Shown here in pieces: positions 1-43,500 of a DNA stretch of 64,000 bases. Location: positions 2,272,001-2,336,000 of the forward strand of contig OY762492.1 of the NCBI GenBank assembly GCA_963665845.2, written 5' to 3'. Numbering within the stretch: the first letter of the stretch is position 1; each line of letters begins with the position of its first letter. The translations under genes and the position numbers were made by a program. The notes beneath the pieces are model-generated. The model was not told the origin of the DNA, searched no databases, and was given only the letters and a program-made list of their open reading frames with translations. Origin of the DNA: Candidatus Poribacteria bacterium. GTDB lineage: Bacteria > Poribacteria > WGA-4E > GCA-2687025.

Positions 1-465
1 GTTCAGCACGGGCGGCGCGGGTCGGTGTCGCTTTTGAAGCCCGGGCGCGATGTCGGTCAGCTCAACGCCCCCGACCAGACGATTCCGCTGGGGCAGACGC
101 TTTCGTGGAGCTTGACGATACGCCAGAGCATCGCTGACGGCGCGACCAACTCGGATACTTTTCAGACATTTTCGAATGGCAAATTGCGCTGGACGGCGGA
201 GGTGGAGATGTCATGGGACGCCGCGGACGCTTCATTGAATCAAGACAAGCTGTGGGAAGCGATCCTGCCGGACGAGTTTGACAAAAGCGCCGTTCGGGAT
301 CGGATGGTACAGGCGAATCTGTATGTGGACGGGAGCCGCTGTTACTACGGCGCGGCGTATATTGAGCGGGCGGATGTGCATGCTCCGTTTGACGGACCTG
401 TGACGGCGCGGTTTCAGCTGCGCGGCAACGGACCGCTCAAATTCAGCGCCGGCGGGTCGGCGTGA
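1..465 (+). CDS. Phage tail tube / major tail-like protein (5' partial)
   Basis: Frame is open from base 1 (VQHGRRGSVSL...). Motifs resemble TP901-1-type tail tube proteins: SWSLTI, WTAEVEMSWD, YYGAAYI, C-terminal VTARFQLRGNGPL. Confidence 0.55.
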   Translation, partial: VQHGRRGSVSLLKPGRDVGQLNAPDQTIPLGQTLSWSLTIRQSIADGATNSDTFQTFSNGKLRWTAEVEMSWDAADASLNQDKLWEAILPDEFDKSAVRDRMVQANLYVDGSRCYYGAAYIERADVHAPFDGPVTARFQLRGNGPLKFSAGGSA

Positions 466-502
466 CGCGGCTCATGAAAGCGGCGTTTTTTGAAAGGAGA
501 AG

Positions 503-781
503 ATGATGGAGATGCGGGAAGGGGGCGTCGGCGCGATGGAGGCTGCCTTGGAACGGCTTCAGGCGCTCGCCCAGAAAGACCATGACCTGTTGACGCAGTT
601 GGATATGAAGGTGGGGGAGGCGCTGGCGCGTCTTTCCAACCATGAGCAGCGTTTCACCGATTTTGAGACGCGCATACGGGAGCTGGAGTCGGCGAAGTGG
701 CGCGTGGCGGGCGTCGCGGCGGCGATTTCAGCTCTCATACCGATCGTTGTGTCGCTTTTGACGACGCGCATTGCCGGTTGA
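503..781 (+). CDS. Small coiled-coil protein with C-terminal TM helix (phage holin/XhlA-like)
   Basis: AAGGAG SD. Heptad region ending ETRIRELE, then WRVAGVAAAISALIPIVVSLL. Follows the tail-like gene. Confidence 0.55.
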   Translation: MMEMREGGVGAMEAALERLQALAQKDHDLLTQLDMKVGEALARLSNHEQRFTDFETRIRELESAKWRVAGVAAAISALIPIVVSLLTTRIAG

Positions 782-789
782 CGCATCGG

Positions 790-980
790 CCTGACCTCAT
801 GCATAAAGTTGGGACAATTCTGGTTGTGGACACGGAAGGTTTCGTGGTGGACTCTGGATTCCCGCTTGCGCGGGAATGCATGCCCTCGCGGAAGCGGGGG
901 ACGATCTGTTTAGCAACGCTTTTTCCCATGAAGAAAGGCTTTGTTTATCCACCTGTCCCGACTTTAGACATGAGGTCAGG
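790..980. mobile_element. MITE-like unit with 27-bp imperfect terminal inverted repeats enclosing a composite REP palindrome
   Basis: 790-816 cctgacctcatgcataaagttgggaca matches the reverse complement of 954-980 with 3 mismatches. Internal REP at 852-903. Confidence 0.65.
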
Positions 981-997
981 GGTTCCCGCCCGCGCCA

Positions 998-2611
998 TCA
1001 ATGCAGGACGACATGCTTCACCTCATGAATCCGCTCAATCGCCGCAATCTCCTGTATCGCCTCTTCCGGCGCCTCGGAGTCGATATTGACGACCATGACC
1101 GCCAACCCTTTCGGCGAGACGCGCCCGACGCTCATATCGGAGATGTTGACGCCGTGGCTGCCGAGTATCGTTCCGACGCGCCCGATCATACCAGGCTGAT
1201 CGTAGTTATACACAAACAGCATGCATCCTTCAGGCTTCGCGCTGGTGTGGTACTGGTCAATCGCGACGATGCGCTCCTGGTTTCCGAACATGGTTCCGCC
1301 GATGGTTCGCCGCGCCTTGCTGGTGACGGCTGTGACGGTGAGCAGATTCGCATAGACGGAGTGTCCGCTTGAGCGCGTTTCCATGAGCCGTATTCCGCGC
1401 TGGCGTATCAGAACGGGCGCGTTCACATAGTTGACCCGCTTGTCAAGCGCGCGCGACAGGACGCCTTTTTGAAACGCGCTTGCGACGAGGTTCGACGCGC
1501 CTTCAAAGATGTCGCCCGCATACTCGATGCCGACCTCCTGTATCTGTTCGCCGCGGCTCAGCTGCGCCAGAATGCTGCCGAGTTTTTCCGCCAGCGACAC
1601 ATACGGTCCGACCGATTCCATCGCGCGCGCGTCCATCGACGGCATATTGACGGCATGTTCTACAGGCAATCCGCGCAGCGCCGCGGAGACCTGCAGGGCG
1701 ATGTCCCGCGCCACATACTCCTGCGCCTCGCGGGTTGAGCCGCCCAGATGCGGCGTTGTCAATGCGTTCGGCAGCTCCGCAAGCCGCATGTTGATGTTCG
1801 GTTCGTCTTCAAACACATCCAGGGCGGCGCCGGCGATCTCGCCTTCTTTGAGCGCGTCCAGCAGCGCCTCTTCGTCGATGACGCCGCCGCGGGCGCAGTT
1901 GACGATGCGGGCGGTCGGCTTCATGCGCGCGAATTCGCGCCGCCCGAATCGATGGTAGGTTTCGCGCGTCAACGGCACATGGATCGTGATATAGTCGGCG
2001 GTCTGGATCAGCTCCTCAAACGGCATGAGCTGGATGCGCTGTTGTCCGGCGGCTTCGTCCGAGATGTACGGGTCTCTTCCGACGACGCGCATGCCGAACG
2101 CCGCCGCCCGTTTGGCGACCTCAATGCCGATGCGTCCGAGTCCGATGACTCCGAGCGTTTTGTTGTACAGTTCGACGCCGACCATGCGCCTCCGCGCATC
2201 GAAGTCGCCGCGCCGCAGAGCCGCATTCGCCGGGGCGATGTTTCTGGACAGGGCGAGCATCATGGCGATGGAGTGTTCGGCGGCGGCGACCGTGTTGCCG
2301 GCGGGGCTGTTCATGACGATGACGCCTCGTCGGGTCGCCGCTCCGAGGTCGACATTGTCGATGCCGACGCCGGCGCGTCCGATCGCTTTGAGTCGGTCGG
2401 CGGCTTGGATCATTTCGGCGGTGATCTGCGTTCGGCTTCGGATGAGCAGCGCGTCGTACTGATGGATGACGCGGAGCAGTTCGTCCGGCGCAATGTCGGG
2501 GCGCAGGTCAACGTCAATATCGCCCGCTTTTTTCAGGGTTTTCAGCCCGCTTTCATGGAGCGCGTCGCACACGAGCGCTCGAAATGGAGCGTTGTTGGCG
2601 GGGTCTTGCAT
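998..2611 (-). CDS. serA: D-3-phosphoglycerate dehydrogenase
   Basis: IGRAGVGIDNVD, GVIGLGRIG, NCARGG, TPHLGGST; C-terminal ACT domain (NYDQPGMIG). Confidence 0.95.
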   Translation of the reverse strand: MQDPANNAPFRALVCDALHESGLKTLKKAGDIDVDLRPDIAPDELLRVIHQYDALLIRSRTQITAEMIQAADRLKAIGRAGVGIDNVDLGAATRRGVIVMNSPAGNTVAAAEHSIAMMLALSRNIAPANAALRRGDFDARRRMVGVELYNKTLGVIGLGRIGIEVAKRAAAFGMRVVGRDPYISDEAAGQQRIQLMPFEELIQTADYITIHVPLTRETYHRFGRREFARMKPTARIVNCARGGVIDEEALLDALKEGEIAGAALDVFEDEPNINMRLAELPNALTTPHLGGSTREAQEYVARDIALQVSAALRGLPVEHAVNMPSMDARAMESVGPYVSLAEKLGSILAQLSRGEQIQEVGIEYAGDIFEGASNLVASAFQKGVLSRALDKRVNYVNAPVLIRQRGIRLMETRSSGHSVYANLLTVTAVTSKARRTIGGTMFGNQERIVAIDQYHTSAKPEGCMLFVYNYDQPGMIGRVGTILGSHGVNISDMSVGRVSPKGLAVMVVNIDSEAPEEAIQEIAAIERIHEVKHVVLH

Positions 2612-2691
2612 CGCCCTCTCCTTCTGTCCGCGGCTCTGTGTGAGCTTTTTGTAATTATGCCCTGAAGCGCGGCTTTTTTCTACTTTTAGAA

Positions 2692-2992
2692 TTCGGACGC
2701 GTCTGAACGATCAAATCCTTCATTCATGGGAAAAGGCTTCCCCAACCAGGTCGTCCCCCGCTTCCGCGAGGGCATGCATTCCCGCGCAAGCGGGAATCTA
2801 GAGGCGCCGCAGAAACCGTCGCGTCGTTTCCCCAGATCGTCATTCCCGCGCAAGCGGGAATCTAGAGGCGCTGCAGAAACCTTCCGCGCCGCTTCCCCAG
2901 ATCGTCATTCCCGCGCAAGCGGGAATCTAGAGGCGCCGCAGAAACCTTCCGCGTCCACCCGCCGACATGTCCCAACTAACGACGTAAGGCCG
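2692..2992. repeat. REP cluster: three ATTCCC-N8-GGGAAT palindromes in 64-65 bp tandem units, bounded by degenerate MITE-type ends
   Basis: attcccgcgcaagcgggaatctagag at 2778, 2842 and 2907. Left flank ...attcatgggaaaaggc and right flank tgtcccaact match ends of the 790-980 unit in reverse orientation. Confidence 0.85.
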
Positions 2993-2998
2993 AGGCGC

Positions 2999-3027
2999 TT
3001 GATTCGTCCAACGCGCCGCTATATAAT
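2999..3027 (+). promoter_or_regulatory. Sigma70-like promoter
   Basis: TTGATT-17 bp-TATAAT upstream of the 3082 gene. Confidence 0.6.
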
Positions 3028-3081
3028 CTATTTAAGAATGACAGGGTCTCTGGAAAGCGCTGAATCGGGAGAGGACGGACA

Positions 3082-3549
3082 ATGAAGAGAATGTTAGCCG
3101 CCGCGCTCGGCGCGTGCCTCATGTGGACAGCGGCGCCCCTTTACGCCGATCAGATTGTCGCCAAAGACATTCTGCGAACGGAAGACGGGAGCGTGGTTGA
3201 AGGTACGGCGCTCGCCACCAAAGCGGATTTGAAAGCGGCCGAAAGCGCCATACGCGCTGAAACAAAAGCAACAGAAACCAGGCTGGACTCTAAAATCGAA
3301 GCGGTAGAAACCAGGCTCCGCGATGAAATACAGATTCTCCGCTCTGAAATGCGGTGGCTGTTCGGAATGTTGATTGGCGTATTTTTAGCGGCGGTAGGAT
3401 TCCTCTGGAAAATGCTGTCGGACTTGAAGGCGCAATTTGCAGCCTTTGCGGAGCGGATGCGGATTGCGGCTCCGACGATCCACCCGGCGCCGGACGCACA
3501 AGGGCATTTTGATCTCACCGCCGCAGGAAACAAGACGGAAGCGGACTGA
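3082..3549 (+). CDS. Exported coiled-coil protein with TM helix (DUF1640/CCDC90-like)
   Basis: Signal peptide, LATKADL motif, heptads, TM segment MRWLFGMLIGVFLAAVGFLW. Confidence 0.65.
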   Translation: MKRMLAAALGACLMWTAAPLYADQIVAKDILRTEDGSVVEGTALATKADLKAAESAIRAETKATETRLDSKIEAVETRLRDEIQILRSEMRWLFGMLIGVFLAAVGFLWKMLSDLKAQFAAFAERMRIAAPTIHPAPDAQGHFDLTAAGNKTEAD

Positions 3550-9875: not shown

Positions 9876-11285
9876 TCACCGCCGCCTCTTCGGGGCTTTG
9901 CGCCCCAGTTTCAGGTTCTTTTCGTTTTCAGGCAGAAGATGCCCGTCCCGCCGATTCTGGCTCTGTAGACCCGTCAAGGTCATTCTGTCCATCTTGACGC
10001 GGTTGCATGGCGGGCAGAGCAGCGTCAGGTTGTCGTAAGCGTCGCTCCCGCCGTCCGATTTGGGGCGGATATGATCCACCTCCAGGACGCGCGGATCGAA
10101 GCGGTAGTCGCGTCCGCAGCCTTGACAGAAACCGCCGAACTGCTCCAGCAACTTTCCATGCTGCAAACGCGGTCTCGGATGGCGGGCGCGCTTGCGTCCG
10201 GTCGGCGTTTGAATGTCGGCGACCGCTTCGTCTCCGCCGTCGGTTCGGGCGGGCGGCTCCGTTTCATAATGGACAGCGTCAAAACCGAAACGCCCCTGCC
10301 GCTCCAGATCGGGATTGACCTCGTCCGCCGCTAAACCCTCCATAGCGAGCCGGGACAGCACCGTCTCATGCGCTTTGTCCCAAAGATCGATGCCAACCCA
10401 CTGCCGATTCAGCTTTTCAGCGGCGACCGGCGTCGTCGCGCAGCCGCAAAACGGATCCAACACCATATCGCCCTCGTTAGAGGATGCCTTGATGATCCGC
10501 TCATAAAGCGCAAGCGGTTTTTGCGTCGGGTAGCCTGTGCGCTCCTTTACTCTCGACTGTAGGCTGTTGATATCTGTCCACCAATCCTCCGGTATTTTTG
10601 GCTCATCCAAATAATATCGGTAGACTTTACCTGTGGATTTAACGATTTTGTCCTGATACGGGCGGCCTGCTTCATCCTTCCCGATACGACCGCCAAAGCT
10701 CTTTGAGCCCGTGTCTCGCGGGATTCCAGCAGCCCGGCCGTTGAAGTGATAATCGCTCCCCCGTGTATAGAACAAGATGATGTCATGTTTACGCGCCCAC
10801 CAGCGCTTGCTTTTGCCGCCCACGTTGTAACACCAAACAATTTCGTTTCGAAAGTTAGATTTTCCGAAAACGGCGTCCAGCAGCATTTTCAGATAGTGGC
10901 TCGCCGTCGGATCGCAATGCAGATAGAGGCTTCCGTCATGCCGCAGGACGCGATGCATCTCAATAACGCGGACGCCCATGAAGCACAGGTAGGCGGCGAG
11001 ATCGTCCCCATAAACCGTCTTTGCCGCCATGACCGCGTTCCAAACTTCAGGATGTTCGTCCCTTATTTTCGTCAGCCATTCGTCATGGATGTCGTCGCGC
11101 CATGACCATCGGTCTTGGAAGCTGGCGCCGTCGGCGAGGCTGTCGGGCGTCGCATGGAAATCGCGCGACTTGTTGAACGGCGGATCGGTGGCGACAAGGT
11201 GTACCGTTTCGCTGTTCATGCCGCGCAGGAAGGCGAGGTTGTCGCCATGGTATAAGGTGCGGTTTTGGAAGTTTGGCGAGGGCAT
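9876..11285 (-). CDS. N6/N4 DNA methyltransferase (beta-class order) fused to a C-terminal HNH endonuclease
   Basis: DPPF, YPTQKP, LDPFCGCATT; C-terminal CQGC...EVDHIRPKSDGGSD..NLTLLCPPCN. Confidence 0.9.
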   Translation of the reverse strand: MPSPNFQNRTLYHGDNLAFLRGMNSETVHLVATDPPFNKSRDFHATPDSLADGASFQDRWSWRDDIHDEWLTKIRDEHPEVWNAVMAAKTVYGDDLAAYLCFMGVRVIEMHRVLRHDGSLYLHCDPTASHYLKMLLDAVFGKSNFRNEIVWCYNVGGKSKRWWARKHDIILFYTRGSDYHFNGRAAGIPRDTGSKSFGGRIGKDEAGRPYQDKIVKSTGKVYRYYLDEPKIPEDWWTDINSLQSRVKERTGYPTQKPLALYERIIKASSNEGDMVLDPFCGCATTPVAAEKLNRQWVGIDLWDKAHETVLSRLAMEGLAADEVNPDLERQGRFGFDAVHYETEPPARTDGGDEAVADIQTPTGRKRARHPRPRLQHGKLLEQFGGFCQGCGRDYRFDPRVLEVDHIRPKSDGGSDAYDNLTLLCPPCNRVKMDRMTLTGLQSQNRRDGHLLPENEKNLKLGRKAPKRRR

Positions 11286-11489
11286 GCGTCTCTTTCGGCG
11301 GGATATTGGCGGTTGAATGGACGGAAGGGCATGTTACCGCTCCCGCTTGACGCTGTCAAGAAGCATGCGCTGACCTTACGTCTTTGGTTGGGACATGCCG
11401 GCGGGCGAACGCGGGCGGCTTGCCAAAAAATGCCCAGCGGTATATGATCAACCAGCTAGACCCTCAAAACTGGTCGGAAGGAGCGCGCG

Positions 11490-25406: not shown

Positions 25407-26447
25407 ATGAACGAGCGGCTGCTCATGGCGGCGTCATGGACGCTTCATCGGCTTTTTTTTAAACGAAGCCCGCTTCCGTCCAATCCGCGCGCGCTCCTTT
25501 ATATACAGCTTGATCATATCGGCGACGCGATCTTGGCGGAGCCGGCGCTGGCGAGCCTGCGGGCTTATTATCCGCGCGCGCGGCTGGATGTGCTGTGCGC
25601 GCGGTGGAACCGAGCCGTCTTTGAAAACTCCCCCCATGTACAACGTATACTGGAGTTCAACCCGCGCGCCTTCAGGCGAGACGCCCGCCCGCCGGACTCC
25701 GCCTTCAAAACATGGCGCGCTTTCAGGGCGCTCCGCGGCGAATATGCGCTGACGATGTGCGTCCGAGGTTCATGGACGGCGCTGACATTGGCGAACGGCT
25801 GCTGGTTCGACCGCGGCGCGGATCGGTTGGAGATGAAACGGCGGCGGCAAACTCCGCCCGACCACGCGGCGGACGCGGCGCTGCAGATGCTGGCGTCGCG
25901 CGGCGTGTCGACCGAATCGCGCCCGCCGCGCTTTTATTTCACGCCGGAGCAGGACGCCTCGGCGGCGCGCCTATTAAAAGGTATGTTAAAAAAAATCGGC
26001 GGGGAGAAGAGGGAGGCGGTCGCGCTCCATGTCGGTTCGCCTGTCCGGGCGAAGCGGTGGCCGACCGCCAAGTTTGCGTCCCTGGCGGAGCGGCTGTATG
26101 CGCGGGGGATGGCGCCGCTGCTGGTCGGCGCGCGCGGCGAAGCGGAACTGACCGCCGAAACCGCCAAAACAGCGCGCGTCCCGACGATCGACCTGTCAGG
26201 GCGGACGACGCTGGGCGAGCTAGGGGCGTTGCTGTCGCGCTGCGCAGGGTTTGTCGGCAACGACTCGGCGCCGATGCATATCGCCGCGGCGGTCGGGCTG
26301 CCGGCGGTCGGGCTGTTCTTCGCGTCCGATCCGCTCCGCTTCGGACCGAGAGGCGAACGCGCGGGCTGTCTACAGGCGCCCTCCCCCCACGCGCTGGACG
26401 CCGACGCCGCCCTAAACGCGCTCCTCCGCCGGATGAATTCGCCGTAA
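25407..26447 (+). CDS. Glycosyltransferase family 9 (LPS heptosyltransferase-like)
   Basis: DHIGDAIL, AKRWP, DLSGRTTL, GNDSAPMHIAAA. Confidence 0.92.
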   Translation: MNERLLMAASWTLHRLFFKRSPLPSNPRALLYIQLDHIGDAILAEPALASLRAYYPRARLDVLCARWNRAVFENSPHVQRILEFNPRAFRRDARPPDSAFKTWRAFRALRGEYALTMCVRGSWTALTLANGCWFDRGADRLEMKRRRQTPPDHAADAALQMLASRGVSTESRPPRFYFTPEQDASAARLLKGMLKKIGGEKREAVALHVGSPVRAKRWPTAKFASLAERLYARGMAPLLVGARGEAELTAETAKTARVPTIDLSGRTTLGELGALLSRCAGFVGNDSAPMHIAAAVGLPAVGLFFASDPLRFGPRGERAGCLQAPSPHALDADAALNALLRRMNSP

Positions 26448-26482
26448 AGCCCCCGGGGGCTGCCATTCCCGCCCCTCCGGTT

Positions 26483-26801
26483 CGTCATTCCCGCGCAAGC
26501 GGGAATCCAGAGTTGAGTTCGACACGGTTCGCATTTGCCGACCGCGTTGACTACCCTGTTCGTCCCCCGCTTCCGCGAGGGCATGCATTCCCTTTCCGCA
26601 CAAGCGGGAATCCAGAGTCGATCTCGACACGGTTCGCATTTGCCGACCGCGTCGTCTACCCTGTTCGTCCCCCGCTTCCGCGAGGGCATGCATTCCCTTT
26701 CCGCGCAAGCGGGAATCCAGAGTATTTGCGCATACGCTTCGCGTTTTCCAGTTGCTGTCATTTCCTCCCGCCGTCATTCCCGCGCAAGCGGGAATCCAGA
26801 G
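26483..26801 (+). repeat. Four REP units upstream of the GIY-YIG gene (CGTC end outward)
   Basis: cgtc...attccc...gcgggaatccagag at 26483, 26561, 26666 and 26772; the middle two carry inserted hairpins. Confidence 0.92.
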
Positions 26802-26836
26802 TTTTCGGCAAACGGCTCGCATTGGCAAGACAGCGC

Positions 26837-26865
26837 TTGAAATCAAAACAGAATTTCCTTAAACT
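26837..26865 (+). promoter_or_regulatory. Sigma70-like promoter, possibly producing a leaderless GIY-YIG mRNA
   Basis: TTGAAA-17 bp-TAAACT; ATG starts 7 nt after the -10 box; no SD. Confidence 0.55.
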
Positions 26866-26871
26866 AACCCG

Positions 26872-27180
26872 ATGAAACAGCCCTGCGTGTACATCATGGC
26901 GAACAAAAGAAACGGCACAACATATGTCGGCGCGACCTCCGACCTGCCGTCTCGCGTATGGAAGCATCGAAACGGTTTCTACGAGGGATTTACGAAGCGA
27001 TACGGCGTTCAAAGACTGGTCTGGTATGAAACGCATACGACCATGCAGAGCGCGATCCTGAAAGAGAAGCAGATCAAACGATGGCGGCGCGAGTGGAAAA
27101 TGGAGCTGATTGAAGAGGAAAATCCGCAGTGGCGCGATCTATACGACGAAATCAGCGGATATGCGCCTCCCAGCGAGTGA
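26872..27180 (+). CDS. Small stand-alone GIY-YIG nuclease family protein
   Basis: CVYIMAN..NGTTYVGATSDL..RV..H, FTKRY, LVWYE, AILKEKQIKRW.R.WK..LIE..NP.W.DL. Confidence 0.92.
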   Translation: MKQPCVYIMANKRNGTTYVGATSDLPSRVWKHRNGFYEGFTKRYGVQRLVWYETHTTMQSAILKEKQIKRWRREWKMELIEEENPQWRDLYDEISGYAPPSE

Positions 27181-27240: not shown

Positions 27241-27542
27241 CTCTGGATTCCCGCTTGCGCGGGAATGACGGGGAGAGGGGCGCGGGAATGACGTCGGGTG
27301 GGATGATGGTTTCGCCGTATGCGAACGTTCTTTTGTTTGCCTCTGGATTCCCGCTTACGCGGGAATGACGGGGAGAGGGGCGCGGGAATGACGTCGGATG
27401 GGATGGCGGTTTTGCCGTATGCGGTCGTTTTTGTGTTTGCCTCTGGATTCCCGCTTGCGCGGGAATGACGGTCTGGTTGGCGGAGCCTTTTTCCCATGAA
27501 TAAAGGCTTTGGTCGTTTAGCCGTCCGACTTTATGCATGAGG
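27241..27542 (-). repeat. Three inverted REP units (100-bp period) downstream of GIY-YIG plus a conserved element end
   Basis: ctctggattcccgctt(g/a)cgcgggaatgacg at 27241, 27341 and 27441; 27487-27542 is similar to 918-975. Confidence 0.92.
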
Positions 27543-27556
27543 CCGCCGCATTTATG

Positions 27557-27585
27557 TTGACACGGGCGGCGGGAGTGTGTATGTT
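27557..27585 (+). promoter_or_regulatory. Sigma70-like promoter
   Basis: TTGACA-17 bp-TATGTT. Confidence 0.5.
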
Positions 27586-28136: not shown

Positions 28137-28482
28137 AGGTTGTTGCCTGGCGCCGCTGTTTTTTTGGCGGTCGGGCGAAGCGGAAAGGATTGATCAATTT
28201 TGGCAAACGGCTCAGATTGTTTCAGTTTCGGTTGCATCGCGCGCCTGTCCTGCGGTAACATAAGGGCGCGCCAAATGAAAGCGCAACAGACATGCGGGCG
28301 GATACGCCCCTTTACCTCGGATTTGAAAAAAGTTTGGACGATTACGCATGATTGATGGAGGGCGTCAGGTGGACGACAGACGAACCAACACGCAACGCGA
28401 TTCGATTGCATATCAACGCCGCGACGCGCAGAAGCCGGCGGCAAACCAGTTTTCCATGAAAGCCATCAGCAGGAGGGCAACG

Positions 28483-31400
28483 GTGTTTCATTCAAAAGGC
28501 GCGCGGCGCCTGTTCTCAACGGCGTGGGCGTTCGCGCTGCTCGCGCTGGCAACTTTCAGCGCATCGGCGCAAACTCCGACACTAGCCGTCTCGCCGACAA
28601 GCGTGAAGGTCGGGGATCTTGTAACCGTGACCGGCGCCAGCTACACCGCCAACCAGGGCGTCGGGCAGCTCTCGGTCGCCGGCACTCCCATTGAAACGGG
28701 AGCGCATCTGCTCTCCGCTACGGTCGGAACGGTTAGCGGCAACAATATCACCGCCAACGCAAGCGGCGCCTTCACCGTTACTTTCCGCGCCCCCGCCACA
28801 ACAGGCGGAGAAAAAACGGTCAACCTGACCGGCTCGACGGCGACAGGCACCTACGACGTTATCCCGCGCATCGTCCGCTTTTCGCCGCTCTCCGTTAAAT
28901 TCGGCGATAGAATGACGATTGTCGCGGACGGATTCACCAAAGATCAAGAGGTGGAGGTCCGCTTTGGAGGAGCCACCTATGCGGACGGCCATGTGCAGAG
29001 CAAAATCAAGGCGAACGGCAATGGGCAGATCAACGGGCAGATTGACGTTAAAGCCGCGCCCTACGCCGACGGAACATCCAGCCATCCGCTCCATAAACTT
29101 TGGGTCGGAGCCGACGTTTCTCGCGACACAGCGGTCGGCGTTTCGCCATACCTTAAACCTGGCGCGCAGACCGTGAAGGGCGGCGGCAAGATCAAGATCC
29201 TGGCGCATGGCTTCCCCGCCGGCGCGGTCACTTTGGATGTTGGCAGGGATATCACTTCTTTCGCAACAGCTAACGCTGCAGGCTCCATCCAAGACGGAGA
29301 TGACGTTAACAAGGCCGCCGAGATTGATCTGCCCGCGGTCAGCTTCGGGCGGCGCGATCTGGTGCTGAAGAGCGGCAACGCCGTCAGCAGGATCACAAAC
29401 GGCTTGAGCGTTGAGCCGTCGTTAAGCGTTGGAACGAAGAACACAGCGGGCGTCGGCGATGATTTCTCTCTCACTTTGGAGGGATTTGCGCATTACAAGG
29501 CGGTGAACAGCGTCAACGTCATCCAGACCGACAACACGGGAACCCATAGGGAAGCTGTCACGCTGGATCTGGTTCAGAACGGCTCGGTCGTCGCGGCGAA
29601 CGTCATGACAATTGACGCTTTCCCTTCCGACCCTAATTCTCAGACCCCCATCGGCGATGGCATCAACGGCGACACAGGGTCCATAACTGGCGAGACATAC
29701 ACGCTCAGCGCCGCGAATGCGTCGGCTCTGCGTTCGGGCGTGGCGACGCTGCGCGCGACCGGCGCTCTCAGCAGGATGTCGCAGGATGTCGTTTTCTTCT
29801 ACTCCAGCCCTGCCGACTCGCCGCGGCTGTTTGTCGTTGAAAAGGCGGACAGCACGACGATGATTACAAGCGCCGCGCCAGGCGGGACCATTGAACTTGT
29901 AGGAACCAGCTACCCGGTGAGCGCGAGCGCCGGCGCGTTGAGCATGGTCCGCGGCGGTCAGTCGAAGGCTCCTGGAGTCACTGTGACCGCAGACGCTGAC
30001 GGTTTGTTCTCTGTATCGGCGACGATACCGACCGATATCGCCGGCGGCGTATGGACGCTTGCATTTGCGAACTCCCCCACCGCCACGGCGACGATCAACA
30101 TCGTTCCGAGCAAACCCGACGTCACTCCTAAGTCTACGACGGTTGGAACCGAGCTGACGTTGAGCGGCAGCGGCTTCCTAGCGGGCGAAACGGTCACGTT
30201 GAGCGTCGGTTCCACCACCTCTGTTCGGGTGACGGACGGCAGCAACACGGACGGCGACACAAAAATCGGCGCGGTTTCGACGACCGTTCGGCTGGGTCCG
30301 ACGCCGTACGGCAAGCATAAAGTCATGGCGGCGCACGCGCGCGGGTCGACCGAAGGCGCCGAGCTGAGCGTGCAGAGCAAGATCACGCGTGTGGACGGCC
30401 TCTCGCGCGATAGAACGGGCGCGCCGGCGGATGAGCGGGTGACGAAGCGCCTCGGCGACGGGTTGACGATTGTCGGGACGGGGCAGGCGGCGAGCTCTGA
30501 GCTGCAGCTGTGGCTGGATGCGAACAGAAGCGGCGGCAAGAACGATGGCGACATCCATCTGAATACGAACAAAGCGACCTCCAACGCGAACGGGTCGTAC
30601 AGCATTGCGGCGGATTTGACCTCCGTCAACGTTGACAATCTAACCCATGAGTACCGCGTATTTCTTGTGGATCCGACGGCAAAAACGACCCAACCGGTTC
30701 CTGTTCTGGTGAAGTTTGACAGCTCCTTTGTGCGCCCCATTGCGGCGCATGTCACCAGCGTGAAGTCGAAGGATCCTGTGAATAAGCTCTGGATTCAAGG
30801 GATCGCCTACAACCAGAACGGACAGCCTGCTCCTGGCAAGAACCTCGGTTACCTGCTCCTGGATGGAGCGCAGCAGAATCTGGGCGGAACCGCCGCCGCA
30901 GATATGTTCAATGAAGGCGGCTCGTTCGATAAAGATCCGAGTTCCGGCGGGTTCCGTATTGAGATCAATACGCCGGAGCTGTCGAAGGGGCAGCATTCGT
31001 TGTCGCTGGGCGGGCAGACGGTGTACTTCACTGTGAACGAGCGGTGGGAAGGCGCCAATAAAAGCCTCAAGATTGGCGAAAGCCATAAGCTGACCGTTTA
31101 CGGGTTCGGCGCCAACGAGTCGATTCAGATCAAGATGGCAGGCCAGGTTGTCCGCACGGCGTCGACGAACGCAAGCGGCACCGCCAAAGATGTATCCTTC
31201 ACGGTTCCGAGCAACATCACGGGCGGCGACTACAAAGTGTCGGTTGAGAGCGGGTCGGTGAAGAAGATCGACACGCTCACGATCACGGTCATTCCGAGCA
31301 TCGCGTTCAAAGGCGATGACGACAAAGAGACCGGCGAGGCTCACGGGACGACGCAGGATACGGTTACAGTGACGGGCAAGGGCTTCCGCAAGGGCGAAGG

Positions 31401-34400
31401 CATCACCTTCACGTTCGGCGGATACAGCGTCGGAGTGACTGTTACGGCGAACTCGAACGGCGCGTTTGAGCAGCTGCTGCGGGTACCGTCCGCAAGTTAC
31501 AACAGGGACGGCGTTGAGTTCCGAGCGGTCGGCAACGCGTCGCTTGCGCATGCGACCGCGACGTTCCATATCTTTGCGGATCTGCGGCTTGCGGATACGC
31601 AGGAGCTTCAGGTCGGCTCCGGCACGGTTGCGGATGTGGTCGGCGACGGCTTTGCCAGCGGCGACACGATCAAGTTCACCATCAGCGGAAAAGACGCAAC
31701 CTCATCGCCGTCGACAGTGACGGCCGGCCCGAACGGATCCTTCACGGCGTCGCTGACGATGCCTGAGTCGCAGGGCGGCATTCAGACGATTAAAGCGGAG
31801 GCGACGAACGGCTCGCGGCAGATTGAGCATCTGCCGGTCAATGTCAGCCCCAGCCTTCAGGTGATAACCAATCCCGCTTCGGGAACGGTCGGGACTTGGC
31901 TCACCGTGAAAGCGAGGGGCTTCGAGAACAACAAGCGGGTCAAGTTCTTCGTGACGCACCCGAGTCTTGGCACTGTTAACGCGAGCACTCATGGGGACGA
32001 CCATAAGGCTAATCGCAACCTTGTCGGCAAGAATACCGGCTGGAACGGCTCCACCGACAATGTGCGGGTTCAGATTCCGACGCTTCCGCGCGGGACATGG
32101 ACGCTTGTCGTTCAGCAGGACGGAACAAACGATCCGTTGACCAATGCGCCGCGTCAGGCGACTGCAGACATTTCGGTCACGCCGCGCATCACGCATATCG
32201 AAGGCGAAGGCAACCAAGGCAAATGGCCAAAGGCTGTCACGGTGCGCAATGCGGACGATTCGTTCCGGACCTTCAGGGTTCAGGGCAACGGCTTCGAAGC
32301 CGGCAGCGCCCTCTCCGTGTACCACACCAACGCGAGCGGCGATGAGTTCACGATCACATCGGGCGGCGCGGTCAACGCCAACGGAACGTTTGATCTGCGG
32401 GCGCAGCTTGAGGATTCGGCGCACGGACCTTTCAAACTGTATGTTGCCGACAGCAAGGGCGGCGTTGCGACAGCGAAAGACGCGATTCGGGTCGGACCGG
32501 TGATCTTCGTTTCGAAGACCTCCGTGTTAAGGGTACCGGATCCAAATGATACGGAAAAGAATAAGATCCAGATCACCGGCTCCGGTTTCGCGGCGGGCGC
32601 GGTCACTTTCCGCTTTAAAAGCGGAGAGAACATGTTCACAGGGACGAGCAGCACGACCGTTATTGTCGGTCAAAAAGTGGTCGCCTTCAAAGGCGCTCTA
32701 AACCCGCTCGCGCCGAGTGGGTGGCAGACGATCGTCGCAACCGACAGCACGGGCGCGACGGCGGAAAAGAATATCCTGGTCGCCACCGAGCCAGGAATAC
32801 GGTTGACCTTGAATAGGACTGCCGCGCATGTGGGCGATGAGGTGGAGGCGACGGGAACGGGTTACGTTGCGAACACATCTTATCCCGCGCTGTTCGGCGG
32901 GAACCCTGTGACCATCACGAGCGCGACCGTCGGGCATTTGCCGACCAACAAGACCTACATTCGGACAGACGGCAACGGCGCCTTCCGCTTTAAAGCGAAG
33001 CTTCCGAATGCGACGAAGGGAACGCAGCAGCCGTTCCGCGTCGGCGCCAACCATGCGGTCGCCCCGATTCAGGTCACCGAGAAGGTGTGGTTGAGCGGCT
33101 CGTTGAACGGCGTTCAAGAGGGCGCTTCCTTCACCGTGAACGGATCAGGCTTTGCGCCGGGCGAGACGCTGGCGCTTGTGTTGGCAATAGAGGGCAACCC
33201 CCCGAACCCGCTTTACTTCTACACGCAATCCGGCGGGACCAGGAACGAAGTGACGACACGGGTGAAGCTTAACGGCGGCGCGGATGTCGGCAGCGTCATC
33301 TGGGACGGCAATGCGAACCGCGGTCCTGGCTTCCGCGCCCGTTCGAACGGCTCTTTCAGCGTGACGATGGAGTCGCCGGGCATCCCTCTGGGCAAATACC
33401 GCGTGGACGTTTTCAAGATGAACACGTCCAAGGGAGGCGCCATTACGTCGACAGGATCCTTGCGGGCGCGGTCGAGCAACACATTCACCTCAAGCGTGAA
33501 AGCGGTTTTGGCGGTCAGCTCCTCCACCGTTTACAACCAGTCGACAGGGGTCGGCGGGAACAACAACGGGCAGCTGTTCATCTCCGGTACCGGCTTCAAG
33601 GCAGGTCAAAATGTGACGGTATCGCTCCCCGGTTGGTCGCAGAATGTGACTCCGGACGCGGACGGCTTCGTGAACACCACCGTGACGGTCACCGGCGCTC
33701 AGTACGGGAACCATGAAATCTCGGCGGCAAGCAACGGCGTGGATCACAACACCTTTAAAAAGCATGGGTACCACGACGCTAAACTCAAAGTGAATGTGGC
33801 GTCGGAGATTGTGGTTGTGCCGTCGACCGCGAGTCCGGGACAGACGGTGACGATCCATGGCTTCGGTTTCGGCAACGACAACCGAGCCAACAAGAACGAC
33901 GAGCAGGTGCGGTTCCGCGCGAACGGCCTGGATATCGGCAGTGCGAAGGGCATCGTCGGCTCCCACGGCCGATTCTTATTCAACTATAGGCTCCCTAATG
34001 CCATCAAGGCCGGCAAAAACCTGACAGGAGTTCCGGGCGGAACGATCGTGGTGCGGGCTGAAGGGCATAGCACGGGCGGCGCCGGCGCCGCCGAGGACAG
34101 CCTGACCATCATTCCGGTGGCGAAGATCAAGAATACGTCGGTTGAGATCGGCGGCGACATCCAGATTGAAGGTTACGGGTTCCCGGCGGGGGCGGCGGTC
34201 CAGCTCTATCTGGATCAGAGCGCCAACGGCAGCGGCGTCTATGAGCTGGGAATAGCGCCCAGCGGCACGGAGAACAAGGCGAACGCGCGCGGCGGACTTG
34301 AAGCGAAAGTGACATCGAAGGCGTTTGTGAATCCGCACATTGCCCGCCATGTCCGGTGGCAGGTGCAGGGGACAGACGCGAATACGGCTGTCGGCGCCGG

Positions 34401-37400
34401 CAACACGACGAACACCTACGTAGCGAAGCCGTCCATCACGGTGGATCCGTACACCGGGCGCGGCACCGAGGACATTCAGGTTGTCGGAAAAGGGTTCACG
34501 CCCGGCTCCGCTTTGAGCGTGAAGGTCGGCGCTAACTGGGCGGCCGGGACGAGCGCGTTCTGGCAGAACGTGACGGTCGGGACGATCAACGGCGGCGGCG
34601 CCTCGTTAACTCCCGCCAATACGGGCGACTTCATCGCCCGTTTCAACGCGCCGACGGCTGCATCGCCGGGCAAGACGAAAGTTCATGTCGGCTCCGCGTC
34701 GTCTATCGCGTCGAAAGACTTCATCTACTCCTCGCCTACGGGGACGAAGATGCTGGAGGCCTTCGACGGCAAAAGCGGAGCCCCCGGCACAACGGTGAAG
34801 CTTCGCGGCTGGAACTACGGCAGCTTTGAGTCGGTCGGGCTTCTTCGGATCGACAACAGCGCGCCAACAAATAGTTCGCCGTTGATCCGGGACGCCGTGA
34901 AGCTCGGCGGCGACAGCCGCGGCTGGCAGGCGATCGGCGGTTATATCACCGCGGATGTGAACGGCGTCTTTGAGGTGTCGTTCAAGACGCCTCAATACAC
35001 GGCGGTTTCGACGAACGGAACGAAGTACATCAACACGCAGAACGGAGCCGCGCCAACGTCCGCCACGGTGACGATCACCTCTACCCTTGCGCGCAGTCCG
35101 CGGGTCGTCTCGCCTGGCTCTACCGTCACATTTACGGGCAGCGGCTTCGGCGCCAATCAGAACCTCGGCAAAGCGACGGTGGTTGGATTCGGGCAGCTGG
35201 GCAAGGAGATCAAGGCAGACGCCAACGGCGTCGTCACCGGCGCGACGTTCAAAATTCCGGACGAGAAAAACAGCGATGGCACCTTTAAAAATGCCAACGT
35301 TTACAACAGAAACATCAATATCACGTCGCCCTCCCTTAGCGGCGGCAACGATAAGAAGGATCTGCATCTTCGGAACGCGGAGGAGATCATTTACTTCTCG
35401 CCGACCAGCGGCGGCTCTGGGACGGTCGTTCGCGTCAAAGCGCGCGGCTTCTTCGCCAATTGGCAAGTGGAAGTTCAATTTGACGGCAAGCATGTCTCGC
35501 CGTATGACGTATTGAGCGGCAAGGTTCATGGCGGTCATTATGTCACGGCGAGCGCCGCTGGCGATCTGGACTTCTACTTCAACGTTCCGCCTTCCGACTC
35601 CGGCGCGCGTGAATTCTGGGTGCGTCAATATCAGCATGGCGACCGGAACAAGAATCATCGTACCAAGCAGCACAAGCGAACCTTCATGGTTGGCGCGATC
35701 ATTGCGGTTCGTCCTTTGAGCCGCGAGGTGGGCGAAGACTTGACGGTGACAGGAACCGGTTTTGGCGCCAATCAAGCTCTGACGGTGAATGTCGGCGGAA
35801 CGGTCATCCAAAAGAACGGCATTGACAGGACGTTCAAAGCCAACGGGGACGGCACCTTCAATGCGAAGTTCAAGGTTCCGGAAGTTCAGGGCGGATTGCA
35901 GACGGTGACGGTGGGCAGCGCGTCCTTCCGGTCGCTCATGGTCAACCCGAACTATACGCTGAGCGGCGTCAGGGCGAAGGTTGACGATCCTTCGACCCCG
36001 TTGATCGCGAGGGTTGACGATCCTTCGACCCCGTTGACCGTCACTGGATACGGTATGGAAGCCGGCACGTCTGTGATGATTTATCTTGACAACGACGATA
36101 AAGACCGGCAGAAGTCGCCACCCCTTCAGGTAGGGTCGAACGGAACGGTGAGCTGGACGTTCCCGACGATCGCGGCGACCTCCTCCGACCGCAGTTACAC
36201 GGCGACGCTGGTTGATTCGGGCGGCAACAGGCACGATGCGGGTACATGGCATGTGGTCAGTACTGCGACTGCGGCAACAGAGACGACGCAGTCCGGGAAA
36301 CTGTTCGGGAACTCCGGCGACGTGGTGACGCTTTCGGCGAAGGGCTTCTCTCGCTATGAGCGTGTGCGGGCGTTGTTCGGCAGCGTCAAGAACGGCATTG
36401 TCACCGGCATTTCCGCGATTGACGGCGAAGGCATTCCGGTGGATGAGAACGGAACGCTTGGCGAAACGAAGGTGCGCGTGCCGAATCTGGCTCCTGGCGC
36501 GACGAAGTTGATCTTGGTCGGACAGGCTTTGAACTCTCAAGGCAAGTTGAACCTGCATCAATGGGACTTTGCGGTCGGCAGCGAAACGAAAGATGTCTTG
36601 ACAGTGGCGCCGGCTATCAACGGCGGCAAGCCTATTTCGGAAGCCAGCCCCGGCGACCGCATCCGCGTTTACATCAATGTCGTCAACACGTTCCAGCCCA
36701 ACGAAGCTGTGACGGTGTACTATGACTACGATCCGGTCAATAAGACCGGCGCGCTGTCTCAGACAACGACAGCGGATCCCAACGGGTCCATACCGGCGGT
36801 CAGGGCGGTGTCGTTCACGGTGCCGGGCGGTCCGGGCGGTATGAAGACCATCGGAGCGGTCGGGGCGAAGTCGGGCGCGGAGCGCAAAGCCGAGTTCACG
36901 GTGATTCCGAAGGTGACGCTGCTGAATCCGTCCCAGTTTGATCTGGGCGATCAGGTTACGATTGACGGCGTCGGCGCCGGCGCGAATCAACCGTTGCAGG
37001 TGGAAATCGCCACCGCGAAGGATAATAATGCAGCGGATGGGTCGGGCGCCGTCTCGACGGTGACGATCGATTCGGGCGCGACCTCGGGCGCGGACGGGCG
37101 GTTCAAGGTAACCTTCCGCGTGCTGAATGCGCTGTATACGAAGAACCCGCAGCCTGTTCGCATCCGCGTCAAAAGTGGAAGCGAGCTGACCTCGCCATGG
37201 TTTGGACGCGCTGCGAAGCTGCAGGTGGTGACGAAGGGCGTTCGGGTGGCGCTGAGACCTGCCGCTGAAGGTCCGGGCGACGCCGTCTTGACGCTGGAAG
37301 GCACCGCCGCCGACTCGGGAGGCAATTCGCGCATTCTTGAGAACATCGGGAATGTGGAGTTGGCGCACGGCTCGATTAACAACGGGCAGCGGCGGAAGAT

Positions 37401-40282: not shown

Positions 40283-40551
40283 GCCTTGTAATTGGCGAGG
40301 CGAAGGAATATACTTGAAACGCCGGCAGTTTTGTCGCATGATATGGAGCGGTAGGCAGCGTCGCTGTTGTGTCGAATAAAAAGGTAGCATTCGAAAGCGA
40401 TGCGTTGTATGCTGTATGTGTGTTCGGGTTTTGGCGGCAGGCGTCGGGACGGTAGGAGAGCGGATTTGACGACATTTCATTTTCAGAGTTTGAACAACAA
40501 TTTTTGTAGGGTACGATCATGACAAGACCCCTTGTTTTATGGAGGCAACGG

Positions 40552-43500
40552 ATGCGCGATTTTCAGTCGTATTTCAAGACAGCGGTCGTCTGGATTGCGG
40601 CGATTGGACTGGTTTTTGGGAGCGCGGCGACCGCAGCTGCGCAGTTCTCGAATTTTAAGGTGACGGTTTCCCTGACCGACAGGGAGGGGAACGCTGCGAC
40701 CGGCTTGAACGTTGTGTTCCAGAACACAAGCGCCCCTGAAGGTTCGCAAGCGGCGCAGGAACAGGATCTGTCGGAGGACGCCTCGACTCCTGGCTCCTAT
40801 AGCGTCACGCTCACCGACCTTGACATCGGAGGAATCTTCAAGCAGGTGCTGATTCCAAAAGAGGGGGATGTCGTTTCTATACGCGCGACGCAGACCGTCG
40901 GCGGGGTAACATCGCCATGGTCGACTCTGCAGCGGACGATTACCAAGGCTGAACTGGACGCTGGAGAGACCAACATCGCTATGACCGAATCCGGCCTCAC
41001 GGTCGAATTCGAGGAAGCGGATGTGAGAGGCGACGGCGTGTCCACCGCGACTCTTGTGGTTACGGTGGTGGACGCCTCTGGAAATCTCATTGACGACGCG
41101 GACCTGACCGCGACGACGACGGCCGGATCTGTGGGCGCCTTTACAAGCGTCGGCAGCGGAAAGCATGAGGCGGTCTTCAACGCGCCTTTAACAAGCCAAG
41201 ATGTGACGGCGGAAGTTACCGTTACATACGGCGCCGATTCGGGTAAAGCGACCATCAACATTATAGGCGTCCCGGCGAATATAACCGTGTCGGTGGACCC
41301 GACCGAACTGGTCGCCGACGGAGCCTCTACCGCAGTTGTCACGGCAACGTTGACGCGCGAAGGCGAAGCGGTTGTGAACGAAACGGTGACGATAGAAGCC
41401 ACCTTAGGTACCGTGGGCGATGTGACCAACAACGAAGACGGAACCTACACGGCGACCTTCACCGCAGGGACGACGGCAGGAACCGCCGAGATCACCGTTA
41501 CGGCTTCGGCGGGCGATACAGGCGAGGCGAGCTTGACTCTAACGCCGGGCGCGCCTGCCGGCATCGTTGCCTCAGTGGATCCGACGCAGATACGCGGCGA
41601 CAGCATCACCACGGCGACCTTCACCGCCACCATCGCCGACGCGAACGGCAACCCCGTTTCCGGGCTTGAAAACGTGACGGCAACGCTCACGGGCGGCGGC
41701 TCCATCGGCGATGTGGCGGATGCCGGCGACGGAACCTACACGGCGGTCTACACCTCCCCCCTGGTGAAAGAAGACGCGGTCGCAACGGTTGAATTCGCTT
41801 ATGCGGCGTTGACGCCCGCCTCGGCGACATTGACCGTGACGGGTGAACCTGACGCCGAAGCGACCATCCTGGTGGTGAAAGGTTTAGCCACCTATCTTGA
41901 CAGATCGCATGCGGCTCCGAACGGCCTTTCTGTCTTGGTGGAAAACGTGACGAAAGATTCGAGCGTAACGAGCGCAACAGGAGACGACGGACTAGGACGT
42001 TACTCCGCAACGTTCTTTGACCTCGCCAATCCGAATGCGGTCGTCGCGAGCTCAAACGATCTGATTCGAGTGACGGTGACCGATCCTGAATCCAACCAGT
42101 CGACCGTGGTTGAGCGGCGCTTGACGGCGGATGAAGTGAACGCGACGATCGTTGACATTGACGTTGAGACAAACCTGAAAGCTACGGCGTCTGAGTTCCT
42201 TGTAGCAGGCACGGTGCAGTATTCCGACGGAACCGCTGCAGTTCTTCCAGGCGCGGGTTTGAGGGTGGAGGTGAGCATCGGAGAGGCTGTGCAGGGGCAG
42301 CCGCTGAATGAGGCGCCGAACGGCGTGTTTAGCATCCAATTCGCAGGCCCGACGTTTGAAGTCGCGACCGGCGACCTGATCAACATCACTGTCTACGATA
42401 TCGACAACAATGTCGTGGCGACCGGCAGCCAGTTCACGTTTATTGCGTCCTCCGCGCAGGTGATTGGCGGCGAGATTGATCTGGGAGATATTCAGACAAC
42501 GGTTGACGCGCACACCGCGAGCCTGAAGGTGATCGGCTCTTTGAAATACAATGACGGAGCCGCTGGGATTCTTCCGAGAGAGCAATTGACAGCGATTGTC
42601 ACCGTTGGCGCTGACAGGAAGGATCCCCTGTCTATCGACAGTCCTATGGGCGACTTCGAGGTCAGCTTTCTTGATGCGCAGTCTGCGGCTAAGACGGGCG
42701 ATCTGGTGAGCATTGAGGTTCTCAAGAACGGCGACGTTGTTGCAAGCATGAGCCGACAGATCACCTCGCAGGAGGTGATTGACGGAGCCTTTAACTTCAA
42801 CGATGTCGTCACTTCGCTGCCGGCGATGTCGGGCGGGACAGGCTTGTTAATCGTCTCCGGTACGGTCACAGCCGACGTTGAGATTCCGGACGGTTCCATG
42901 GTTCTAGTGACGAACCTGCACCGCGGAGACACAAGCACAAGCTCGCCCGTTACCATCACAAACGGCAAGTATAGCGCGGTATTGCAATCCAGCAATGTCG
43001 GGGCGCCCAACTTGGGCGATGTCGCTGAGACGGGCGATGTGCTGCTCATTGAGGTACTTGATCCGGACGGCGTTGTCCTCGCGGCCAATGAAACCGTTCT
43101 CGATTCGATGGCGGTGGTTCTCGGAGCGATGACGGGCGCGAATGTCCAAGTGACCGGCGTTGTGATAGCGCTGACCATCGGCGGCGACCCAGTGGACGCT
43201 AACTCATCCCATCAAACCCAGTATGATGCGAACGGCGTCGCTTCGGCGACGGTGGTAGCGACGGTGTCCGGCTCGGTGAGCGCGGGCGAACTGACATTCG
43301 ATTCAGGCGGCGTGGGATCCTTTGAGCCGTTGGACGGAAACACTCGCACCTTTAGTACCGTTTACGCTGACGAGATGTATTTCTCGTCAGACAGAGGTCT
43401 CGTGACGATCACGGTCTCGGCCGGCGACAAGGCGAGCCGCACCGTCACGCTGAACGTGGTGGATATAGACGATCCAGTGATCAACTCCATCACGCCAGAA

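Follow-up and report, generated by a model that had tools for sequence, protein, structure and literature searches.

A Family of Hairpin-Bearing MITEs With Tn5/IS4-Like Ends Located Upstream of Predicted Promoters in a Candidatus Poribacteria Genome

Introduction

Which element carries the REP hairpins of this genome, and which enzyme moves it, are the questions raised by positions 790-980 of the window, the 64-kb stretch of DNA analysed here (C1:2272001-2336000 of the 3.98-Mb host genome, G000). A composite REP hairpin lies there between inverted repeats, and the right end of this unit recurs beside the hairpin array of a GIY-YIG nuclease gene. The initial annotation of the window proposed that REP clusters move inside a larger bounded element and that the GIY-YIG locus may be its autonomous form. 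Both proposals are considered below using the whole host genome, the congeneric genome G001, and homologous loci of the enzymes involved.

The MITE at the Left Edge of the Window and Its Remnants

The inverted repeat at 790-816 and 954-980 is 27 nt long with 3 mismatches (89% complementary) and encloses a single composite REP hairpin at 852-903, as the initial annotation had described. Members of the family start with CTGAC, the element itself is bounded by 791 and 979 (189 bases), and the outer C/G pair belongs to the flank. The family has two distinct end modules, named C and A. The features of this copy are as follows.

791..979, + strand: complete MITE belonging to the 190-bp class, in which terminal inverted repeats tipped with CTGAC flank a composite hairpin
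791..816, + strand: left terminal inverted repeat, 26 bp
852..903, - strand: composite NTS/SRM-type (CGTC REP) hairpin within the MITE, motif as printed in PMC11893778
954..979, - strand: right terminal inverted repeat, preceded by the A-module at about 904-953

This copy aligns end to end with the consensus of the 190-bp class and is atypical in lacking both a target duplication and a predicted promoter on either flank. G001 does not carry it, and the copy probably arrived with a small deletion, or underwent one later, since the G001 site is occupied by about 50 bp of a different hairpin. When four sequencing runs were compared over 300-3300, contigs of two of them confirmed both junctions, and no contig joint skipping the MITE was present among the matches listed. 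The two confirming runs may be those of the source study.

Two further remnants lie in the window, each with a predicted promoter outside it.

2687..2993, - strand: decayed MITE, eroded at its two tips and containing three hairpins in tandem (2777-2932)
2999..3027, + strand: predicted sigma70 promoter TTGATT-N17-TATAAT, close beyond the decayed end at 2993
11370..11415, + strand: isolated C-type end that has no hairpin and lies between two genes transcribed divergently
11331..11359, - strand: predicted promoter TTGACA-N17-TAACAT that faces the ORF at 9876-11285 and begins 10 bp beyond the end at 11370

The first remnant is the inverted, degenerate recurrence seen in the initial annotation; the module occupies 2687-2804, and the other end type is found at 2906-2989. 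Its promoter is offset by 5 bp from the MITE end because the tip is deleted, and the counterpart in G001 keeps a near-intact tip at the serA-side end. Synteny with G001 (L024) breaks at this decayed MITE upstream of serA (window 2993 onward), and the next G001 gene beyond the break maps near G000 C1:1611536, which also adjoins hairpins. Elsewhere in the window, two giant ORFs of 3960 and 4014 aa are neighbours at 28348-40230 and 40519-52563.

A MITE Family Across the Genome

A search of the whole genome with an iterated profile of the end sequence, a step suggested in the initial annotation, returned 533 end matches, compared with 0 on one strand of shuffled C1. It placed the family boundary at CTGAC and gave 158 end pairs within 3 kb, with 217 ends left unpaired. 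Most of the 150 pairs of 700 bp or less are either 168 bp long, with a simple hairpin, or 190 bp long, with a composite one. Exact target duplications of 6-8 bp flank 51 of these 150 short MITEs (6, 7 and 8 bp in 26, 20 and 5 cases); duplications with at most one mismatch flank 73, and 77 have none. Shuffled pairings of the ends gave duplications at a rate of only 0.04-0.2%. The spread has been partly recent, because among the 67 copies of 168 bp there are 14 that are identical to their nearest neighbour or differ from it by 1 or 2 bases. The unit is thus a MITE in the usual sense, being short, non-coding and present in many copies, with terminal inverted repeats and with ends common to a transposase-bearing element. 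A transposase ORF also lies between two MITE ends at C1:2446972-2448553, which we take from its sequence to be IS1595-like.

Empty sites in a related genome were also sought. The comparison covered 1.2 of about 3.6 Mb of G001, where both flanks could be mapped for 11 of the 150 elements; six of these sites looked empty and five were otherwise changed. Clean empty sites, with one copy of the duplication beside the promoter motif, were found for C1:402658, 1814196 and 3817660. A swapped-duplication test gave no signal of recombination between copies: there were 16 matches at 6 bp (maximum in controls 17), 4 at 7 bp (5) and 1 at 8 bp (4). The absence of an exact duplication from 77 of the 150 MITEs, and from 50 of 58 metagenomic copies of the parent element described below, is tentatively attributed to later rearrangement.

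A Probable Tn5-Like Parent Element

The element at C1:561322-562588 (1267 bp) has both MITE-type ends and a transposase gene between them, and contains no hairpin. Compared with the MITE consensus, one of its ends has 2 mismatches in 27 positions and the other none in 26. The MITE ends are therefore the terminal repeats of a conventional DDE insertion sequence in the same genome, which speaks against the nuclease locus as their source. The transposase matches PF01609 at 50.9 bits (cut-off 23) and is the only DDE_Tnp_1 gene found in G000. A sequence search of solved structures gave weak matches to Tn5 only (E 0.33-0.56); with the predicted structure (pLDDT 82), the top five Foldseek matches were all Tn5 transposase (E 4e-12 to 5e-11). 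The full Y(2)R(3)E(6)K motif is present, with Y, R and K invariant in 40 aligned homologues. The putative catalytic residues are D94, D175 and E274 in alignment numbering, with spacers of 80 and 98, the second falling just under the IS4 range of D(60-110)D(100-150)E. The protein scores below all NCBIfam IS4 cut-offs, the best being NF033591 at 77 bits against a cut-off of 152, and the element is filed here as putatively IS4/Tn5-like, outside any named subgroup.

The parent is present as a single copy with no target duplication. Its transposase may be inactive at present, because there is a change of reading frame at an A run close to the C-terminus, followed by a stop codon in the continued frame. 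The nearest homologues (L009; P0001, P0003 and P0005) change frame at the same A-run position and distant ones read through, so that a programmed shift or slippage is possible in this sub-clade.

The transposase has 1631 homologues at E <= 1e-20. None of 80 metagenomic loci contains the hairpin, and in 65 of them both ends, of the same type, are found at a spacing of 1168-1509 bp. Exact duplications were present in only 8 of the 58 full-length metagenomic parents with flanks (L108-L187). A homologue in another genome (L009, G003:C53) lacks the hairpin but shares the ends and is flanked by a 6-bp duplication; its insertion point lies 9 bp upstream of a -35 box predicted for an apparent tRNA gene. 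No transposase homologue was found in the plasmid collection or in five genomes reached through nuclease loci. Taken together, the ends and the homologous loci argue strongly that the MITEs are mobilised by this transposase family.

Docking Upstream of Predicted Promoters

The flanks of the MITEs share a fixed feature. TTG occurs at an outward offset of 9-11 bp in 192 of 503 ends, and alignment of these 192 TTG-phased ends yields TTGACA-N17-TATAAT. TAnnnT follows at a spacer of 17 in 99 of the 192 and at 16-18 in 115, compared with 14 of 174 control TTGs elsewhere in the flanks and about 2% genome-wide. The TAnnnT peak persists without conditioning on TTG (61, 64 and 37 ends at offsets 32-34). 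Promoters were called with a generic sigma70 matrix, and the calls are predictions from sequence only; promoter-scoring ends number 52 at offset 9, 70 at offset 10 and 28 at offset 11, compared with 0-3 at offsets above 12. A predicted promoter lies on one side of 61 of the 150 elements, compared with 0-5 in control windows, and the predicted -35 box starts exactly 3 bp past the duplication in 16 of 17 scorable cases. Relative to a typical start site, the duplicated bases would fall at about -39 to -46, adjacent to sigma region 4 and the contact zone of alpha-CTD.

The motif is one-sided, occurring on the left in 19, on the right in 16 and on both sides in 1 of the 51 elements with exact duplications, and a palindromic target CAA-N13-TTG was rejected for this reason. 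Both end types, C and A, face promoters, so the orientation of insertion is free. The same promoter phase was found at 40 of 86 ends in G001. It was also found at 65 of 120 ends of metagenomic parents of about 50% identity, drawn from many samples, with the logo TTGACA-N17-TATAAT; this proportion is near the 50% expected were every insertion at a promoter. Motifs on both sides are commoner in MITEs without a duplication (11 of 77) than in those with one (2 of 73; Fisher p 0.018), which fits a later deletion or exchange joining the ends of two insertions. The metagenomic set gave 13 of 48 without and 1 of 8 with a duplication, a difference that is not significant, and frequent adjacent deletion or rearrangement between promoters is possible in those parents.

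Two routes to this phase can be compared. Promoter-bound holoenzyme may guide the transposase, or the DDE transposase may itself read TTGA/TTGC 3 bp outside the cut, or DNA shape, with promoters enriched only because insertions elsewhere were purged. Such direct readout combined with selection is the main rival to holoenzyme guidance. It would accommodate the 77 of 192 TTG-phased ends that have no TAnnnT at spacers 16-18, and the diverse sequence preferences described among IS4-family elements (PMC2266710); moreover, all copies examined have already undergone selection. However, a purely local readout of TTG agrees poorly with the -10 box, which accompanies phased TTGs (115/192) far more often than other flank TTGs (14/174). 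A dimeric transposase reading DNA should also give a two-sided motif, which is seen at only 1 of 51 elements, and the full two-box logo is retained in the distant metagenomic parents. Direct readout is thus considered unlikely, and targeting through contact with promoter-bound holoenzyme, by way of sigma region 4 or alpha-CTD, is the probable route. A complex prediction for the transposase with the C-terminal region of the host RpoD scored 0.01, favouring neither side.

The GIY-YIG Nuclease Locus and the Hairpin

The nuclease locus has the following features.

26483..26801, + strand: left NTS/SRM array of 4 hairpins, no MITE end outside
26872..27180, + strand: single-domain GIY-YIG nuclease gene of the Ssn type, 102 aa (PF01541, E 8e-15), the only copy in G000
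27241..27470, - strand: right NTS/SRM array of 3 hairpins, inverted relative to the left array
27471..27546, + strand: A-module of a MITE with its right terminal repeat decayed; the orthologous G001 locus has this part intact
27557..27585, + strand: predicted sigma70 promoter TTGACA-N17-TATGTT, beginning 10 bp beyond the MITE end; G001 locus L022 has the same geometry

The NTS consensus is matched with at most one mismatch at 26483 and 26772 (+) and at 27270, 27370 and 27470 (-). The closest named relative of the nuclease (L028) is 91% identical and also from Candidatus Poribacteria. The recurrence of the MITE right end after the hairpin array, reported in the initial annotation, holds, with the module at 27439-27542 and its tip decayed. 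Its failure to find a left end or a target-site duplication was repeated on re-search: no left MITE end was detected in 26301-26880 in either orientation (best local scores 14.5-25.5, where shuffles of a similar search reach 30), and no target duplication was found at the locus. A 15-bp match to the MITE interior just past the nuclease stop was rejected as a terminal repeat, being hairpin flank (score 26; shuffle 99th percentile 24, maximum 30).

G001 has two copies of the nuclease gene. The copy at the orthologous site is frameshifted and has an intact A end; the second (L020, G001:C32) is intact and lies in the ATP-synthase region between hairpin arrays without MITE ends. At the ATP-synthase site G000 has no nuclease gene, only decayed half-hairpin repeats at C1:1063717-1063973. 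The intact G001 copy is 94% identical to the window gene, the syntenic copy only 87%. Because the second G001 copy has arrays only and G000 lacks the gene there, the ssn cassette appears to change place without these MITE ends, which suggests that ssn moves between existing hairpin arrays.

Could this locus nevertheless be the autonomous element, recognising the MITE ends and moving the MITEs? In G000 and G001 alike, a MITE end adjoins the right hairpin array, the published Ssn system has this hairpin as its target and its description likens NTS-ssnA-NTS to an insertion sequence (PMC11893778), and the presence of the nuclease at two G001 sites implies that the cassette moved or was duplicated. 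The MITE ends, however, match a DDE insertion sequence and its distant homologues, which carry no hairpin, and the 6-8-bp duplications fit DDE chemistry. The nuclease locus itself has no left end, and MITE ends are present neither at the second G001 copy nor at any of 80 homologous nuclease loci, 63 of which have hairpins. An autonomous role of the nuclease, as put forward in the initial annotation, is therefore highly improbable. In a related history, the whole hairpin-ssn-hairpin cassette once travelled between a pair of MITE ends, of which the left one later disappeared; this would account for the canonical 10-bp promoter spacing of the right end in two genomes. Yet a left end or a trace of a duplication is absent both in G000 and in the G001 flank downstream of the glycosyltransferase, and the nuclease is present as one copy only in G000; this history is quite unlikely. 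The shared end is probably explained by docking of a MITE, because it sits at the family's target position relative to the promoter of the downstream gene in both genomes. The GIY-YIG gene is best regarded as a predicted Ssn single-strand nuclease that would recognise and cut at the hairpin, not as the mover of the MITEs.

The hairpin is much more widespread than the MITE. G000 contains 909 hairpins, with 174 exact matches to the printed NTS consensus; 508 are in clusters with neither MITE end and 166 have both. Hairpins in two-ended units thus make up about 18% of the genome total, and about 44% have at least one end. Conversely, 143 of the 150 short MITEs contain one NTS/SRM hairpin at a fixed position. 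No RAYT (Y1_Tnp, PF01797) was found in G000, a genome 90% complete in which 6 of 14 controls were detected. The hairpin is therefore a passenger of the MITE, and the MITE accounts for only part of the repeat family. The proposal that REPs move inside a larger bounded element accordingly stands for the 143 hairpin-bearing short MITEs, as seen in their duplications and the empty G001 sites, and does not cover the 508 hairpins without ends. Further repeat modules are joined to the hairpin in BIME-like mosaics, among them a C-run/TTGAAAA/G-run palindrome and a GGCAATC tandem module.

A Second Docking Family and Other Partners of the Hairpin

Clustering of hairpin flanks revealed other end modules; the greedy clustering over-merges, and chimeras were recounted from end motifs. 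Ends of the GGCAGT type gave 111 and 146 matches of two patterns in G000, with TTG at exactly offset 15 in 50 of the 111 and 41 of the 146. Short pairs of these ends have 8-bp duplications in 21 of 42 cases, and the same NTS/SRM hairpin is found in 35 of 40 short pairs. Their parents (C1:2900231-2901052, 1868311-1869132 and 3507598-3508422) are 822-825 bp long with IS1-family transposases, and an ISKra4/ISLre2 parent was rejected on this basis. An IS1-derived MITE unrelated to the first family is thus also predicted to dock, 15 bp upstream of putative -35 boxes. Thirteen hairpin-bearing units join one end of each MITE family, and 26 of 257 GGCAGT ends abut or interrupt an end of the first family.

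An IS110-family element (C1:3073389-3075095, L252) has its end joined to the hairpin in all 9 end matches genome-wide, and apparently targets the hairpin. An IS110-type end is also found upstream of ssn in L022, and one IS110 copy lies inside a MITE. The hairpin looks like a shared hub among element families.

Proposed Mechanism

The preferred reading, with a probability of about 0.85, is that the unit at 791-979 belongs to a non-autonomous MITE family with Tn5/IS4-like ends, likely moved by that transposase, which makes 6-8-bp duplications and docks 3 bp (plus the duplication) upstream of predicted -35 boxes, likely guided by RNA polymerase. In this mechanism a Tn5/IS4-like DDE transposase would act on the shared 26-bp ends to mobilise the MITE, and promoter-bound RNA polymerase would guide it so that the outer cut falls 3 bp upstream of the -35 box. 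A single capture event would have brought a hairpin with about 15-20 bp of flanks from an Ssn-type repeat array into the MITE, and MITE transposition would then have multiplied it. At the nuclease locus, a MITE would have docked at the promoter of the downstream gene, and its other end would afterwards have been lost or exchanged at the shared hairpin.

A wider scheme can be offered only tentatively. A widespread Tn5-like clade (>1600 homologues) may land by way of sigma70 RNA polymerase, cutting where class II activators sit; it and the unrelated IS1 elements may both have captured the Ssn hairpin, with Ssn cleavage shuffling MITE ends into promoter-proximal mosaics. If this were true, a three-way system of transposases, nuclease and hairpin would explain the expansion of NTS/CGTC repeats without a dedicated transposase. 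If RNA polymerase does guide insertion, the parent would be a host-factor-targeted relative of the best-studied transposase and a possible tool for safe-site integration or promoter mapping. The roughly 190 phased ends provide a ready map of predicted sigma70 promoters in an uncultured bacterium.

Comparison With Known Systems

Insertion at a constant spacing from promoters has been described for the Mutator-like TnGBS, ISLre2 and ISKra4 elements, which insert 15-17 bp upstream of primary-sigma -35 boxes (PMC3942029). The MITE family resembles them in its DDE enzyme, its fixed distance upstream of the -35 box and its near-symmetric ends used in both orientations, as that paper's available text presents them (PMC3942029). 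It differs in the Tn5-like fold, the YREK motif and the distance of 9-11 bp (a 6-8-bp duplication plus 3 bp). A search for Mutator-like transposases in G000 gave no match to NF033572 and none to PF06782, the controls of the latter search being equally silent. On sequence grounds the MITE family appears to work like the p-MULT promoter-targeting elements but is not one of them. Fixed-register promoter targeting was found in print, within the open literature, only for Mutator-type transposases, and would thus be an addition for a Tn5/IS4-like lineage. That literature yielded no description of IS4-like or IS1 elements with a promoter phase, or of MITEs that carry SRM, and nothing relevant on repeats and transposases in this taxon.

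The parent shares CT-starting ends, DDE and YREK residues, a length of 1.2-1.5 kb and a Tn5-like fold with IS10, IS50 and ISPepr1 of the IS4 family (PMC2266710), and differs in its variable 6-8-bp duplication and its scores below the NCBIfam IS4 cut-offs. The duplication sizes overlap those of ISPepr1 (7-8 bp) only partly, the IS4 subgroups ranging over 7-13 bp, about one helical turn. The main text of that survey never mentions promoters (PMC2266710), and a large survey of IS genes describes, in its available text, general promoter proximity only (PMC9208149).

The hairpin and nuclease have close published counterparts. Ssn enzymes cut single-stranded DNA beside the NTS hairpin, and the window resembles that system in that inverted arrays matching the NTS consensus lie on either side of a single-domain GIY-YIG gene of roughly 100 aa (PMC11893778). 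The available text of the same paper contains no mention of MITEs and leaves repeat expansion open, whereas here two unrelated DDE MITEs carry some of the repeats. The QMITE2 element of Coxiella burnetii is a REP-bearing MITE of 150-190 bp with terminal repeats and 7-11-nt duplications, whose REP is also a target of an IS110-family element (PMC5896051). It is alike in size, terminal repeats, duplications and internal REP; however, its REP is of the GTAG class and not CGTC/NTS, and the available text describes neither a parent transposase nor a promoter phase (PMC5896051). CGTC-tagged REPs, the same repeat class and similarly arranged in mosaic intergenic clusters, are said to lack a dedicated transposase (PMC3733652), whereas in this genome some of them probably ride as passengers and are spread by a DDE transposase. 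Carriage as cargo of DDE MITEs would provide a concrete route for the expansion of NTS/CGTC repeats, a matter left open in the available texts of both PMC11893778 and PMC3733652.
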